From Escherichia coli (GTDB lineage: Bacteria > Pseudomonadota > Gammaproteobacteria > Enterobacterales > Enterobacteriaceae), in the NCBI RefSeq assembly GCF_045037415.1, contig NZ_CP173438.1: a DNA stretch of 64,000 nt; one strand, written 5' to 3'. Position numbers: made by a program. Of this stretch, positions 34,685 through 43,600 are shown piece by piece. Each line of letters begins with the position of its first letter. Position 1 is the stretch's first letter.

Positions 34685-37600
34685 ATCGACTTCGAAGGTT
34701 CGAATCCTTCCCCCACCACCATCACTCGATTCCATTATCAAACCTTCGGCTTCTCCCCCATTCGCCGTAAAAACTGCTGCTGTAGCCTCAACAAATCCGC
34801 TAACGTCAACAACTGATAATCCAGACCTTGCTGGCTGGCAATTTGCGCAATAATGCGGCTTAGCGCCGAATAATGGCGATGATGCCAGTGAGGAAACAGA
34901 TGATGGGTAAGGTGCAGATTAATCCCACCCAGCCAGTAGCCAAGCCATGCAGGTTGCGGCGTCCAATCAAAGGTGGTAGCAAAGGTATGCGCCAGTCTGC
35001 CCACGGGCATTTTGCCCTCTTCTGGTGGTAACTGCGTATGTCCCTTCGCCCAGTGCGTTCCAATAATCAACGTCACAAAAATCAATGACGCCAGCAGCTG
35101 GCTGAGCAGATAAGTCAGCAGGATGGTCATAAAACTAAAATCAGACAAAAGCCAGGGAATTATCAGACACAGCGCACAATGCGCCAGTTTCCCGGCTAAG
35201 AAATATCCCCAGCCAGCAAAGCCTCGCAGGGCCAGATGTCGCGTGACCGGCGTAAACCCTGCGCGATCGAGCCAGTCCACTACCCAGATATACCAGGGAA
35301 AGGTGAGCGCGGCGACCAGTGGCCAATAGCGATGTTGCTGGCGCATAAAAGGTCGCCACCGTTGCCACGGCGTCTGGCGAAGAATGCCATTTTCTGCTGT
35401 ATCTGGATCGTAAAATTCAATATTGGTAAAACCGTGATGAAAGCGAACGTGGCGCACCCGCCAGCAGTCCGGATCTAGCCCCATAGGAAAAGCAACCCAC
35501 CGGTTAAGCCGGGCATTGGTCTTTTTACCACGCAAAAACGCATCATGCGAAGCGTCATGCACCACATTGACCGCTAACAACATGGCGCAAAACATCATCG
35601 CGAGATACCACAACAGATACAGTCCCCATTGACGTTGAAATAACGCCAGTAAGTAACAGGAGAAACAAGCAATAATCAACACCGCCATTTTGACGAATGC
35701 CCATCCGTCGGCATACCGATGATCGCCTGATTTCGCCAGATAAACTTTCGTACCGCTTTGCAGTTGTTTCACCAGTTGTGGATCATCGGCAGGAAAAGTG
35801 ATTAACCTGTCGGGATTAAACAGGTTCATACTGTTTCCTTAGCGATTTACGTCCTACGCCGATTACAAATAACAGGCAATGGGCCAGCAGAATACCCACT
35901 AATCCCTTCCAGAGCAGAGTACTCCATGAACACATATAGACAATAAAATAGAGCAGTGACAACGTCACAGAGCACCACAAAATCATACCCCAATGCTGCC
36001 CGTCGCTCATGCCCCCCAGCGCAACGGAGCCTGCCGCCAGCAGAACAAATAATACGGCTTGCTCGCTGGTAATAAACTCAATGCCATAGCCATATTGTTG
36101 AATGTAGCCAAGCACCAGCATAAACAGCAGGATCACCCCTGCCCCTACCGCCCATGGAGAACTCTGGTAGCGACCTTCAATCGCTTTGCCAAATGAGCAA
36201 AAGCCCATTAAGCGTAAAAATGGCAGATTACTCTCGCGCATCGGGTTACAGGACAAGCGACTATTTTTTACGCCGTAGCCTACGTCGTATTCCGGCCCGG
36301 CACTATACGAACCGAAAAGTTTATCCCACAACAAAAAGGTGCCACCGTAATTGGTATCGGCATATTGCTTTTGATTCAGATGATGGACGCGATGATGCGA
36401 AGGCGTGATCAGCACTTTTTCCAGCCAGCCCAGTTTCGGCGTTAGTGCGTTATGGTTAAAAAATTGCCAACTATAGTGAATAATAGAAACCGCCAAAAAG
36501 ACCTGTAACGGCACACCAAGCATCGCCAGCAGCATAAAAAACGGGATTGAGGTTAACGAGGAGTACCACGAGTTCCGCACGCCTAATGACAGGTTGTAGT
36601 GTTCCCCCTGATGATGCACCACATGTACCGCCCACAGCGGGCGCATTTCGTGATGCCAGCGATGTAGCCAGTAAAAGCCGAAATCCCACGCCAGGATAGT
36701 AAACAACCACAGCAGGATCACCGGCACATTATCAAACAGTCCAAGGCTGAAGTGATTGACCACCAGGCCATAGCAGAGCACTTCCAGGCAGCGAAATAAC
36801 CACAGCATCATATGACCGGAGTTGATATTAAAAATAACGTCCAGCCAGTCCACTTTTTGCCGCCCGGTGAATTGCAACACGCCCGCTTCGGCTAACACCA
36901 ACAGCACCATCGATATGATGGGGAATAATAAATCACTCATATTGTGTCTTCCTTTTCTCGCATGTTGCGCATATCCAACCGCAAATCGACGCCAGCAACG
37001 CGCCGCCTACTAAATCGATAAATAAATGTCTGCGTAATTGCAGAATCGAAAAGGCGATTGCTATCGCCCAGACCACGCTCATTAGCGTCAGCCAACGGTT
37101 CCCCTTTTTAGCAATCGCCCATACCGCCAACAGCGTTAGCGCGGCGTGTAAGGAGGGAAAACAGTTCTGGCTTGAGTCAATGGCGATCAGCCTGTTGAGT
37201 GCGCCCGCGGATATCCCCATCTGATCAAACGAGGGATAATGCATGGTTGTGGGCCAGAGAAGATAAAATACGCCAGCCACCAGTGCGGAAATTTGCATTG
37301 AACGGGCCAGCCAGCGCAGGTGGCAAAGTGGCGTGGATAAATAACCTAACGGCACAATGAAAAAAAACGAGAGATACAGCCACACAGCGGAGGGGGAAAA
37401 CGCAATCAAATTATCAATTATTGACGGTGTTAATTGATATCCCTCACCTTGCAGGTAGTCGCTAAAGTTGTAGATAACCCCAACAGTTCCCCAGCCCAGC
37501 AGCATCTGTTTCAGGCGTAGCAGTGAATTGCTCATTCCCGCCCCCACTGACGCACAATGCGCCGCCGCTTGGCTGTAAAAGAGACTGGCACAGTTTGCAG

Positions 37601-40600: not shown

Positions 40601-43600
40601 TACGAGGATCTTCACGGTAAAAGCACCATGCCAGCCAGCGTTAGTCCCGCTGCCGTGCCAATCAACATTACAGGTTTATCCGCTGTGAAACGACCGCTAA
40701 TCACTGCTTCATGCAGCGCCGTGGGGATAGAGGCCGCGACCTGATTGCCGTAAAAACGATACACATCGATGAGCGCAGATTCCGGCACTCGCAGCCGTTT
40801 ACGCATATGTTCAAGGGAAAGATGACTGGCCTGATGCGGAACGACCGTGCCGATATCAGACAGTTGCAGGCTGCTTTTTTGCAGCAACCGAGAAAAATAA
40901 TCTTCAATAAGCGAAGAAGCAAAACGAAACAGCGGTTTCCCCTGCATATGAAAAAGAAAGTCGCTATCACTCACACCAGAGCGAGGATTACGCCGCGTAC
41001 CGCCAGCACGAATTTCACACAGTTCGCTGCCTTCGGGATACATTTCGATCAGGCTAGCGATAATCCCGCTGCGCCCATCGCCCCGCTCAACAATCGCGCA
41101 CGCCGCGCCATCACCAAAAATTAATGAAGACTCTTCATGATCCCAGTCGATACCGCGTGAAGCAATATCTGCCGAAACGATGGCAATGCGTCGATATGCT
41201 CCACAGTTTAATAATCCGGCAGCGACTTCAAGAGCGGAAATAAAGCTCACACAGCTACTGTTGATATCAAACCCGGCAACGCCTACGGGCATGGCTGCGG
41301 CTTTAAGAATATGAATTGCGCTACAGGGTAATGCCTGTACGGCAATGGCCGATGCACAAATTAGCAGATCAATATCAGAAGGATTTAAGGCTGCCGCTAC
41401 TAACGCATTATGTAAAGCCTCTGCCGCCAGTTCGGCCTGGCTGGCGTCGTTGCGGGCAAAATAGCGCCAGCAAATACCGGAACGTCGCTCAACATAGCCA
41501 ACTGGCTTATTTAACTGAACATCCAGTTGTTTAGAAGTGATTTGATCAGGGGGTAAGGCGATCCCCGTGGCGATTATTTTTAACGCCGCGGAGATCGTCG
41601 GTTGATTAGGTCGAGCCACGGTCAGTGCTCCTTCACTGCTCCATAGGTGGACCAATCATATAGATGAAGTACGTTTCCCTACAATCCGAAAAATCGGCAG
41701 TGTGTAACCGCCGATGTTTGGTTTAGATAATGTTTGGTTTAGATAATTAGTGACGAGCGCGCACCAGCTGATACTTACGCGTCAGATACTCCACCGGGAC
41801 ACTCCAGATGTGTACCAGACGCGAGAACGGGAACAGCAGGAATAACGTCATCCCCAACACCAGGTGCAGACGGAAGATAAACGCCACGCCATCAAGATGT
41901 TGAGAAGCGCCACCGTGGAAGGTCACTACCGACTGCGCCCAGCCAACCAGTTTCATCATCTCGCTACCGTCCATATGCTGAGCAGAGAACGGAATGGTCA
42001 GCAGGCCCAGCGCGCACTGGATAACGAGCAGCGACAGGATCAGGATATCCGCTCCGGTAGTCGTTGCACGCACGCGTGGGCTGAACAGACGGCGTTTCAA
42101 CAACAGCACGCCGCCAATCAGACACAGTACGCCGCTGGCACCACCAGCAAACATCGCCATTTTCTGCTTCACTTCAATCGGCAGCCAGGCTTCATACATC
42201 CAGTGCGGCGTCAGCATACCGAAGAAGTGACCGACAAAAATCCCCAGAATACCGATATGGAACAGGTTCGACGCCAGATTCATCCCTTTGCGATCCAGCA
42301 TCTGGCTGGACGCCGCGCGCCAGGTATACTGCCCGTAGTCATAACGCAGCCAGCTACCAATCAGGAAGACCGCCCCGGCTATGTACGGGTAGATATCAAA
42401 GAAGAACATATTCAGGAATTGCATTAGTGCTGTCCTCCGGTGGTGATATTCAGATATTGCGGCGCGACGGCACCGGCAAAGCGACGCTGATGAGCAGTGA
42501 TTGCTGAATCACCGCAGCCTTTGTCAGCAAAGAATTTAACCTGCTCTTCTTCCCAGACTGCATCCAGCGCCTGCGGCGTATCGTCGCGCGCTTCGTCGGC
42601 AATTTTTTCCGCCACTTTGTCGCTGTCGATTGCGGTATTCGCCAGTTTCAGCAGCAGATCAAACAGCACGGCATAACGGCTTTCACGCTGTTGCAGACGC
42701 GCACTCAGCAATGCCAGAATCGGCGCAATATCTTTCAAACCCTCCACGGCTTCGCTTTGCGGCAGCTGCGCCAGGTACTCCAGATACAGCGGCAGATGGT
42801 CGGGCAATTCGCGGCTGTTTAACTGCAAGCCGTGCTGCTCGTACTGCGCCAGCAGATCCACCATCGCCTGGCCGCGGTCACGGGATTCACCGTGAACATG
42901 TTCAAATAGCAACAGTGACGTGGCGCGGCCACGGTCGAACAGTTCGCTGTACTGCGCCTGGGCATCGAGCGGATCCATCGTCGTTAAATCGCGCAGGAAA
43001 ATGCCCAGCGCATGGGCATCCTCTTTTGGCAGATTTTTCGACGCGGCAATCGCCTCAAACATCTCTTGTTGATGCTGCCATAAGGCAGCATCCGGATATT
43101 CAAGGAGACGCGATACAATCACGAGTTCGATCATGGGTGCGGCTCCGTTTTGCTGGTTACGTCGATGGCATCGATACGGCGGCTGTTGAACAGATTGAAT
43201 TTGGTATCTGAACCGTGGCAGCCATCACCAAAGGTAAAGCCGCAGCCATTTTTCTCCGGGAAGGCTTCCCGCGCCAGTTCACGATGACTGCTCGGCACCA
43301 CAAAGCGATCTTCGTAGTTGGCAATAGCCAGATAACGATACATCTCCTGTGCCTGGGCTTCGGTCAGACCGACCTCTTCCAGCGCACGGGTATCGACTTT
43401 ACCGTCAACGGTTTCAGCACGTTTGTAATGACGCATCGCCAGCATACGTTTCAGCGCGCGCAGTACCGGTTTGGTATCACCGGCGGTCAGCAGATTCGCC
43501 AGATACTGTACCGGAATACGCAGGCTTTCGACGTCTGGCAGAATGCCGTTGCTGCCCAGTTCACCCGCGTCTGCCGCAGACTGAATCGGCGACAGAGGCG

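Follow-up and report, generated by a model that had tools for sequence, protein, structure and literature searches.

The 64-kb stretch of the Escherichia coli genome analysed here (assembly GCF_045037415.1, contig NZ_CP173438.1; called the window below) contains a block of seven genes at positions 34738-41619. We regard it as probably an operon for a specialised acyl-derived lipid pathway, in which condensation, keto-reduction, carboxyl activation and membrane tailoring would follow one another, and which has been inherited vertically within Escherichia. This reading is carried by the gene order, the families of the products, their intact catalytic motifs, the purifying selection acting on the genes, the conservation of the first four genes as a cassette in other bacteria, a natural fusion of two of the cassette enzymes and the variability of the tailoring modules that follow the cassette. 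The first-pass annotation of the window had taken the block for an accessory acyl-lipid operon of E. coli. The acyl-lipid genes are as claimed there, but the block is one case of a widespread four-gene cassette, and it is less specific to E. coli and biologically broader than that description implied.

The seven genes lie on the minus strand between narI, which ends at 41747, and the single tRNA-Tyr gene, and the same seven are given by the open reading frame (ORF) listing and by the RefSeq (PGAP) annotation of the identical strain AVS0747. Gene 1 (40612..41619) encodes a 3-oxoacyl-ACP (ACP, acyl carrier protein) synthase III (KAS III, FabH)-like condensing enzyme of 335 amino acids (aa), referred to below as the ketosynthase (KS). 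It is followed by an extended short-chain dehydrogenase/reductase (SDR) of the 3beta-hydroxysteroid dehydrogenase (3beta-HSD)/OleD type (gene 2, 39599..40615, 338 aa), a metallo-beta-lactamase (MBL)-fold hydrolase of the lactonase branch (gene 3, 38815..39621, 268 aa) and a PaaK-type adenylate-forming enzyme related to F390 synthetase (gene 4, 37532..38818, 428 aa). The last three genes encode a PAP2_3 family integral membrane protein (gene 5, 36933..37535, 200 aa), a membrane di-iron enzyme of the fatty-acid hydroxylase (FAH)/sterol desaturase family (gene 6, 35816..36940, 374 aa) and a membrane enzyme of the fatty-acid desaturase (DES) family (gene 7, 34738..35829, 363 aa). All RefSeq names are generic: 3-oxoacyl-ACP synthase III C-terminal domain, NAD-dependent epimerase/dehydratase family and MBL fold metallo-hydrolase for genes 1-3, and F390 synthetase-related, phosphatase PAP2 family, sterol desaturase family and fatty acid desaturase family for genes 4-7. 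The first-pass annotation had assigned the same seven families, quoting the catalytic triad of KS and the histidine boxes of the last two proteins; all the quoted motifs were found, and NCBIfam, Pfam and motif evidence agree with the assignments. With the RefSeq starts, neighbouring genes share 4, 23, 4, 4, 8 and 14 nucleotides (nt) at their six junctions, within the range of 4-23 nt given earlier. The mechanical ORF of the PAP2 gene reaches a TTG codon at 37697 (36933-37697, 254 aa) and would overlap the adenylating-enzyme gene by 166 nt; the ATG at 37535, with its overlap of 4 nt, is backed by RefSeq and by the orthologues. The overlapping junctions and a strict co-linearity of the genes in other genera fit transcription as one operon, in agreement with the initial proposal.

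The catalytic triad of KS is intact and consists of Cys123 (NSSCVSF), His262 (PHQAS) and Asn292 (GNQVAAS). The top NCBIfam matches of the protein are FabH models, none of which reaches its cut-off (TIGR00747, 193 bits for a cut-off of 292; PRK07204, 332 for 402; PRK09352, 210 for 249), and by curated score KS would stand outside the housekeeping FabH family. Its best sequence matches in the PDB are MxnB (171 bits) and CorB (156 bits), followed by FabHs (at most 149 bits) and PqsD (81 bits); no OleA structure is among the matches at E<=1e-10. OleA and PpyS use an essential glutamate as the base (PMC4578411). The corresponding position of KS, mapped via V94 of MxnB onto Glu117 of Xc OleA, is occupied by Leu97 (PMC4578411). 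MxnB and CorB, which join two chains to an alpha-pyrone in the pathways to myxopyronin and corallopyronin, are like KS in the Cys-His-Asn triad and in the non-acidic residue at the position of the OleA glutamate, and they are its closest solved matches. They differ in the HQP motif of CorB, the proline of which (Pro266) was tied by the CorB authors to non-decarboxylative chemistry (PMC5506619), whereas 54 of 68 members of the KS family have the FabH-like HQA (HQG in three, HQP in two). The HQA motif would be compatible with decarboxylative condensation with malonyl-ACP. Furthermore, no trans-acyltransferase polyketide synthase is found near the operon, and the score margin of MxnB and CorB over ordinary FabHs is small. 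A loop of about 12 residues, GGTRRNPRSGVSDSDF, which is present in MxnB and CorB and not in Aquifex FabH, was considered as a marker of chain-fusing enzymes and rejected; most of it also appears to occur in E. coli FabH.

The SDR has the NAD(P)-binding motif GATSGLG and the catalytic motif YASSK. Its best NCBIfam matches are two models of OleD (2-alkyl-3-oxoalkanoate reductase), at 146-152 bits for a cut-off of 580, with HpnA next at 99 bits, and its best PDB match is a decarboxylating sterol-4-alpha-carboxylate 3-dehydrogenase. The substrate of OleD is an alpha-substituted beta-keto acid, and the sterol dehydrogenase produces such an acid by oxidation of the 3-hydroxyl. On these scores the SDR is a relative of OleD, not an equivalog.

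The metal site of the MBL protein (H101-x-H103-x-D105-H106, H193, D214 and H264) is invariant in 30 family members. An AlphaFold model of the protein with a predicted local distance difference test (pLDDT) value of 95.3 was compared with the PDB using Foldseek, and the top 26 structures were all lactonases (4-pyridoxolactonase, AhlX, AiiA, GcL and AiiB; TM 0.70-0.78); PqsE, glyoxalase II and RNase Z were not among the top 50. The fold of the model is of the lactonase branch, and the dinuclear metal site is complete in sequence. In terms of sequence families the protein stays below equivalog level, with 56 bits for 4-pyridoxolactonase (cut-off 325) and 42 bits for AiiA (cut-off 375). In UniRef it carries the name 'GumP-like protein', and for this reason the gumO and gumP (/chd2) genes of Xanthomonas may be related to those of the cassette. 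They are found downstream of the xanthan gum operon and encode a 3-oxoacyl-ACP synthase III and a metal-dependent hydrolase, both uncharacterised (PMC2585010, PMC4468381, PMC5554336). No Xanthomonas protein is among the best 120 matches of either MBL search, one made with the family profile and the other with a Dyella homologue. A role of the block in anti-phage defence was also considered and rejected: among the PADLOC models, MBL gives a marginal match to LmuA (E=5.6e-4) and the other six proteins give none.

The adenylating enzyme is a member of TIGR02304, which it matches over residues 3-427 of 428 with 748.5 bits for a cut-off of 251.9; a Pfam-A search, AMP-binding included, gave no match. 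It contains the motifs SSGTSG (107), YQATEG (243), RYRLDD (294), PCPCG and EGRxDD (321) and a C-terminal Lys417, and these ANL-type motifs are conserved, together with Lys417, across 24 diverse members. The model of the enzyme (pLDDT 90.7) has two domains folded as in PaaK and is closest in Foldseek to the PaaK family, represented by BT_0428, AjiA1, NatL2, PaaK1/2 and ClxA (E about 1e-19).

The other three products are integral membrane enzymes of lipid-modifying families. The PAP2 protein matches Pfam PAP2_3 (E=2.2e-9) and PAP2 (E=9.8e-8), and its motifs PSLH (127) and RHLFID (169, HxxxD) are conserved across 37 homologues. The KX6RP (C1) motif is found neither in the protein nor in the 37 homologues, so that the three-motif pattern of the lipid phosphatase/phosphotransferase (LPT) phosphatases, in which C2 is SGH and C3 is SRX5HX3D, is incomplete. 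The two-motif pattern recalls the phosphotransferases of the Aur1/sphingomyelin synthase (SMS) type, which we take as a predicted activity. An older automated name of the protein is 'inositol phosphorylceramide synthase', and the NCBIfam model of phosphoinositol dihydroceramide synthase matches it with E=5.6e-4. The hydroxylase has the histidine boxes HRWHH (93), HVVHH (106) and HHRVHH (182), its orthologues match Pfam FA_hydroxylase, and its sole NCBIfam match is OlsE (67.5 bits, cut-off 475). The boxes of the desaturase are HDASH (91), HVRFHH (127) and HLTHH...HWHH (306-317), its orthologues match Pfam FA_desaturase, and many relatives of the operon have a second desaturase paralogue at this place. 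With three histidine boxes and a Pfam match on the orthologues, both enzymes can be assigned by sequence to their superfamilies; neither reaches the cut-off of a characterised equivalog in NCBIfam. Sequence searches of the PDB with the hydroxylase, the desaturase and the PAP2 protein gave no match or a marginal one to LpxE only.

The first four genes recur far outside Escherichia. At E<1e-30 the relatives of the adenylating enzyme fall into about 500 clusters at 50% identity. When relatives were collected from one genome per species, at least 597 species were found to have one; 80 loci were kept for examination of the neighbourhood, the architecture of which was counted by tblastn. The MBL gene is near the adenylating-enzyme gene in 77 of the 80 loci, the SDR gene in 76 and the KS gene in 72. 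The order is almost always KS-SDR-MBL-F390, most of the exceptions being located at contig ends, and it is kept at 40-45% identity, metagenomic contigs included. The cassette is found in Proteobacteria, Bacillota, Actinomycetota, Saccharibacteria and metagenomes, and its hosts include Yersinia, Serratia, Pectobacterium, the Pseudomonas syringae group, Xenorhabdus, Burkholderia and Paenibacillus as well as the bee-gut symbionts Snodgrassella and Gilliamella. In one metagenomic lineage MBL and the adenylating enzyme are fused, in this order from the N- to the C-terminus, into a natural protein of 705 aa (positions 8001-10118 and 3042-5159 of the respective contigs). Genes for a TetR regulator, KS and SDR stand before the fusion gene, and one for a GT4 glycosyltransferase comes after it.

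The genes downstream of the cassette vary. The E. coli architecture, PAP2-FAH-DES, is found in 18 loci, and in 16 further loci it is accompanied by a second desaturase. In the Y. pseudotuberculosis complex, Citrobacter and Mangrovibacter the cassette is followed by a second, OleD-like SDR (SDR2), an HpnI-like GT2 glycosyltransferase, a protein of 194 aa and an MGT-like GT1 glycosyltransferase; the Y. pseudotuberculosis cluster lacks the PAP2, hydroxylase and desaturase part, and the 194-aa Yersinia protein matched no family in a Pfam search. Both modules are combined, to a total of 11-12 genes, in Y. similis, Superficieibacter and C. gillenii. The 12-gene cluster of Y. similis (7168-19254 of its locus) is the fullest, with the core, PAP2, the hydroxylase, two desaturases, SDR2, GT2, the 194-aa protein and GT1, and versions of 10-12 genes are present in five further loci. 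Paenibacillus, other Bacillota and Haemophilus sputorum have an ATP-grasp protein (PRK06849) and a FemAB-like GNAT protein instead, the metagenomic lineage with the fusion has GT4, and in some Xenorhabdus and in Snodgrassella alvi the core stands alone. As far as the gene content can be interpreted, a constant core with varying downstream genes is the hallmark of a cassette that forms a scaffold, the decoration of which differs between lineages. The decorating proteins are integral membrane enzymes and glycosyltransferases of the lipid type, and for this reason it is very likely that the scaffold is a lipid.

The sequence of reactions, with the substrates of each step and the order of the SDR and the MBL/ligase steps, is what we infer from these families. 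KS would accept an acyl thioester on Cys123 and carry out a Claisen condensation, by which a new C-C bond is made and a beta-keto-acyl product arises. The keto group of this product would be reduced by the OleD/3beta-HSD-type SDR to a beta-hydroxyl. MBL and the PaaK-type enzyme would act as a coupled pair at the carboxyl end: the lactonase-type MBL would interconvert a lactone or ester form of the intermediate and the free acid, and the PaaK-type enzyme would adenylate the carboxylate with ATP and pass the acyl group to a hydroxyl, amine or thiol acceptor. The PAP2_3 protein may then add a phosphate head group to the membrane-resident product or remove it, and the di-iron hydroxylase and the desaturase would oxidise the alkyl chain or chains in the inner membrane with O2. 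The family assignments support an acyl-derived product, which the first-pass annotation had already proposed.

Two versions of the KS step have been weighed. A two-chain condensation of the Ole or mycolate kind, leading to a 2-alkyl-3-hydroxy acid, is slightly preferred, although only tentatively. It is favoured by the affinities of the SDR, the nearest solved relatives of KS, the lactonase fold of MBL and the presence of tailoring enzymes of a kind typical for two-tailed acceptors; Leu97 in the place of the OleA/PpyS glutamate and HQA instead of HQP would speak against it. The other version, a linear two-carbon extension of the FabH type leading to a long-chain 3-hydroxy acid, is possible but somewhat doubtful: it fits the signatures of KS and gives a poorer account of the need for a lactonase and a cassette of its own.

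The two-chain condensation could also be part of a strict Ole-like pathway carried out by partly non-homologous enzymes. In such a pathway KS would join two chains head to head, SDR would reduce the product, the adenylating enzyme would close a beta-lactone and MBL, in the role of OleB, would process the lactone, either decarboxylating it to an olefin or transferring its strained acyl group. OleABCD, like LstABCD of lipstatin and NltABCD of nocardiolactone, unites the same four chemistries in one operon, namely a thiolase-fold enzyme, a 3beta-HSD-type SDR, an adenylating enzyme and a hydrolase, so that the cassette can be matched function by function to OleA, OleD, OleC and OleB. The closeness of SDR to the OleD models, the chain-fusing enzymes among the nearest solved relatives of KS and a lactonase-like MBL that always adjoins, and in some lineages is fused to, the adenylating enzyme point in the same direction. 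The enzymes themselves are different, however. KS is FabH-like, lies outside the OleA clade and lacks the Glu117 base; SDR scores about 150 bits with the OleD models for a cut-off of 580; the ligase is of the PaaK type (TIGR02304) and not of the OleC type; and the hydrolase is a lactonase-type MBL and not an alpha/beta enzyme. Judged by the OleA glutamate, the OleD score, the OleC ligase and the OleB hydrolase, the cassette would fall outside OleABCD on every count. Ole clusters are also devoid of membrane tailoring enzymes, which do follow the cassette, and a pure hydrocarbon would offer no handle to the downstream PAP2, glycosyltransferase and ATP-grasp enzymes. A strict Ole-like pathway is for these reasons unlikely.

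The linear version has a counterpart in the routes to released signals, pqsABCDE and luxCDE. KS would add two carbons, SDR would form the 3-hydroxy acyl intermediate, MBL would release it as PqsE or LuxD do, and the ligase would activate the starter or the released acid, the products being long-chain 3-hydroxy, unsaturated or hydroxylated fatty acids, or their esters, that serve as a signal or effector. The pqs operon, in which a FabH-like condensing enzyme is encoded together with PqsE as the MBL-fold hydrolase and PqsA as the adenylating enzyme, is a precedent for such a set, and the lux system resembles the cassette in acyl release, ATP-dependent re-activation and reduction. The prevalence of HQA in the KS family, the detectable relationship of PqsD to KS and the presence of a desaturase agree with such a route. 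Pujo and colleagues (Gut 2021) reportedly found more 3-hydroxyoctadecaenoic acid (C18-3OH) in strain Nissle 1917 than in other E. coli, and the operon, which Nissle 1917 carries, is a candidate source of it. Nevertheless, the structural likeness of MBL is to lactonases, PqsE and glyoxalase II being absent from its top 50 matches. The ligase falls into another ANL subfamily, and neither anthranilate nor aldehyde chemistry is implied by the cassette. Moreover, 3-hydroxyacyl intermediates are already supplied by housekeeping fatty-acid synthesis, which would make a dedicated cassette redundant, and tailoring by PAP2_3 and glycosyltransferases suggests a lipid retained in the membrane rather than a released acid. 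We consider this alternative improbable. On its predicted activities the cassette is closest in logic to OleABCD and pqsABCDE and is a member of none of the pathways with which it was compared.

The lactonase-like MBL and the PaaK-type ligases, which are classically catabolic, as in the degradation of phenylacetate, might suggest that the operon breaks down or detoxifies compounds such as lactones, acyl-homoserine lactones or aromatic acids. KAS III, the glycosyltransferases, PAP2_3, the desaturase and the ATP-grasp/FemAB ligase represent biosynthetic or tailoring functions instead, and no transporter, ring-cleavage or beta-oxidation genes stand beside the cassette in the loci examined. There is very little to recommend a catabolic role.

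Within the biosynthetic reading that we prefer, the decorations invite a comparison with sphingolipids. The enzymes of sphingolipid tailoring (Aur1/SMS of the PAP2 superfamily, Sur2/Scs7, Des1 and the GT21 glucosylceramide synthase) come from the same four superfamilies as the proteins of the operon and its sister clusters, the HpnI-like (Glyco_transf_21-type) GT2 of the Yersinia cluster being the counterpart of the last; the likeness is at the superfamily level only. The operon differs from the sphingolipid systems in having neither a serine palmitoyltransferase nor a ceramide synthase, and a nitrogen-containing sphingoid base is for this reason not expected. It is conceivable, as a rather long shot, that the cassette makes a nitrogen-free 'ceramide mimic', a membrane lipid class that has not been described, consisting of a two-chain 2-alkyl-3-hydroxy scaffold fused by KAS III and decorated in the manner of sphingolipids. 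The decorations would be a phospho-head group attached by the Aur1/SMS-like PAP2 protein, hydroxylation and desaturation, to which the HpnI-like and MGT-like enzymes of Yersinia, Citrobacter and Superficieibacter would add glycosylation.

Several observations weigh against a lipid pathway of the kind proposed. The operon contains no acyl carrier protein, transporter or regulator that would point to the substrates or to the destination of the product. If the hydrolase and the neighbouring ligase, which consumes ATP, had the same substrates, they could form a futile pair. The signals from KS appear mixed, in that MxnB scores only about 20 bits above the best FabH, the glutamate base is absent and the motif is HQA instead of HQP. 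O2 is required by both the hydroxylase and the desaturase, yet their operon sits behind the anaerobically induced narGHJI, and no clear promoter was found for it. Finally, a search of open-access full text, in which the CFT073 locus tags c1689-c1694 were included, found no publication on the operon or its product. All the families are known, and their combination as a pathway was not found described there; no characterised pathway matching it was found either, which accords with the first-pass annotation.

Among 5,426 complete E. coli genomes, 672 have the whole block and 673, about one in eight, have the adenylating-enzyme gene, so that the block is practically always whole where it occurs and is not part of the universal core. 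It is missing from a K-12-like strain and from 4,753 of the complete genomes, and its position outside the K-12 backbone, asserted earlier, is thereby confirmed. The carriers include SE15, Nissle 1917, ABU 83972, Seattle 1946 and CFT073, in which the PAP2 gene is c1693; strains of the urinary tract and strains of medical and commercial importance are thus among them. Across the adenylating-enzyme gene SE15 and many human clinical isolates form a group of 100% identity, and Nissle 1917, ABU 83972 and Seattle 1946 form a second group at 98.6%. The named strains presumably belong to phylogroup B2 (sequence types ST131 and ST73 or similar), going by strain names and not by typing; ABU 83972 is an asymptomatic-bacteriuria strain and Nissle 1917 is a probiotic. 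Of the 673 adenylating-enzyme genes in E. coli, two are on records typed as plasmids and not as chromosomes, and an allele of only 91.8% identity is present in strain N96, which comes from a Tibetan pig.

Between purU and narI the K-12-like strain contains tyrT, tyrV and two RtT repeats, at 2636-3195 of its locus, and nothing of the block. Its collinearity with the window stops at the 3' end of the tRNA gene (~34723-34726) and is restored precisely at the stop codon of narI. The cluster occupies the same site in E. fergusonii and E. albertii, in the order narI, cluster, tRNA-Tyr, purU, and in E. fergusonii tyrT, tyrV, a 24-nt repeat of the RtT end (12275-12999 of its locus) and the cluster are found side by side. 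The first-pass annotation had placed the block 'where K-12 has tyrV-tpr'. It is correct that the K-12-like strain has tyrT and tyrV and no block at this place, but a simple replacement is contradicted by E. fergusonii, which has both. In the window a single tRNA-Tyr is present without the RtT small RNA (34627-34726); the reduction to one tRNA gene in this lineage was probably mediated by the tRNA 3'-end sequence TCCTTCCCCCACCACCATCA, which is repeated.

The synonymous divergence (dS) of the seven genes is 0.18-0.39 from E. fergusonii and 0.31-0.70 from E. albertii, compared to 0.23-0.31 and 0.31-0.59, respectively, for the flanking narI, narJ, narH and purU. The ratio of nonsynonymous to synonymous divergence (dN/dS) is 0.07-0.20 in each of the seven genes in these comparisons, and the reading frames are intact with no internal stops, which indicates that all seven genes are under purifying selection. 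The GC content of the block, 0.46-0.55, is ordinary. These data bear on the suggestion that the block is a genomic island linked to the tRNA gene and acquired recently, or a remnant that is decaying and has no function in E. coli. The suggestion might be drawn from the adjoining tRNA gene and from the absence of the block in most E. coli, and two observations in other genera could be cited for it. In the Pseudomonas syringae group the same seven-gene cluster (6185-13121) lies between insertion sequence elements, with IS66-family and DDE_3 transposase genes and duplicated DUF2628 genes in its flanks, which suggests that the cluster is mobile there, unlike the vertical pattern in Escherichia. 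In Yersinia pestis NCTC5923 the KS gene is split by a single-base indel into ORFs of 169 and 198 aa (99.5% identity to Y. pseudotuberculosis with one gap, at 7167-8175 of its locus), and the cassette appears to be a pseudogene. The E. coli block, however, has none of the marks of an island: the ORF listing of the window contains no integrase, no direct repeats surround the block, its composition is not atypical and its divergence is not discordant with that of the flanks. Because the cluster is at the same site in the sister species, with dS like that of the flanks, ordinary GC content and no integrase, it is not a recent insertion targeted to the tRNA gene, and intact frames under constraint in a block that is complete in 672 of 673 carriers are not those of a remnant. 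We see almost no chance that the island or remnant explanation is right. The simplest reading of the sequence comparison is that the operon was present in the Escherichia ancestor and was deleted in most E. coli lineages, the lineage of the window having kept it and having separately reduced tyrT, tyrV and rtT to one tRNA gene. The block is accessory, as the first-pass annotation had called it, in the sense of being absent from most E. coli, but this is due to loss and not to recent insertion.

The operon begins about 65 nt past a terminator-like hairpin behind narI. The 3' flank of narI (41688..41746, minus strand) consists of a perfect 16-bp tandem repeat, TTATCTAAACCAAACA in two copies at 41715-41746, directly after the narI stop codon, followed by the hairpin, which has a 9-bp stem and a U-run. 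This flank is wholly unlike that of K-12-like strains, which have a REP-like sequence there. The leader and putative promoter region of the operon, as read from the sequence, extends over 41620..41687 (minus strand); the KS gene starts with GTG at 41619, and a ribosome-binding site, GAAGGAG, is found 8 nt upstream, at 41628-41634. A scan with the sigma-70 consensus gave no strong match upstream of the KS gene, and the number of sites was not above chance. The operon may be transcribed from its own promoter or by read-through from narGHJI. At its other end the operon converges with the tRNA-Tyr (GTA) gene (34637..34721, plus strand), which marks the left edge of the collinearity with the K-12-like strain and is the sole tRNA of the window; an Rfam search of the block found nothing beyond it. 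A terminator-like hairpin, ACCCCACCACGGGGT followed by AATGCTTTTT, is present on the minus strand at 34630-34644, antisense within the 5' end of the tRNA gene. If the operon ends at this hairpin, the tRNA gene would be covered over its full length by an antisense transcript.

The lipid metabolism of E. coli is regarded as essentially complete and as devoid of O2-dependent desaturases and hydroxylases. About one in eight complete E. coli genomes nevertheless has an intact, selectively maintained operon with members of both O2-dependent families. K-12 naturally lacks the block, and gain-of-function lipidomics is therefore feasible in this strain. With the cassette in at least 597 species, the identity of the product would annotate thousands of genes together. 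The product could be a new lipid or lipid-derived effector relevant to host association. One hint of a role in virulence comes from P. syringae pv. actinidiae biovar 3, where the gene IYO_RS29540, annotated as 'Coenzyme F390 synthetase', may be the orthologue of the adenylating-enzyme gene; when it was interrupted by Tn5, virulence on kiwifruit seedlings was lowered to a score of 2/6 (PMC9823363, Table 1). If the product were indeed a ceramide mimic, the lipid or a released long-chain 3-hydroxy acid may aid host interaction in Nissle 1917 and in extraintestinal E. coli of the ST131 and ST73 types, and this role may extend to Yersinia, Serratia, plant pathogens and bee-gut symbionts.

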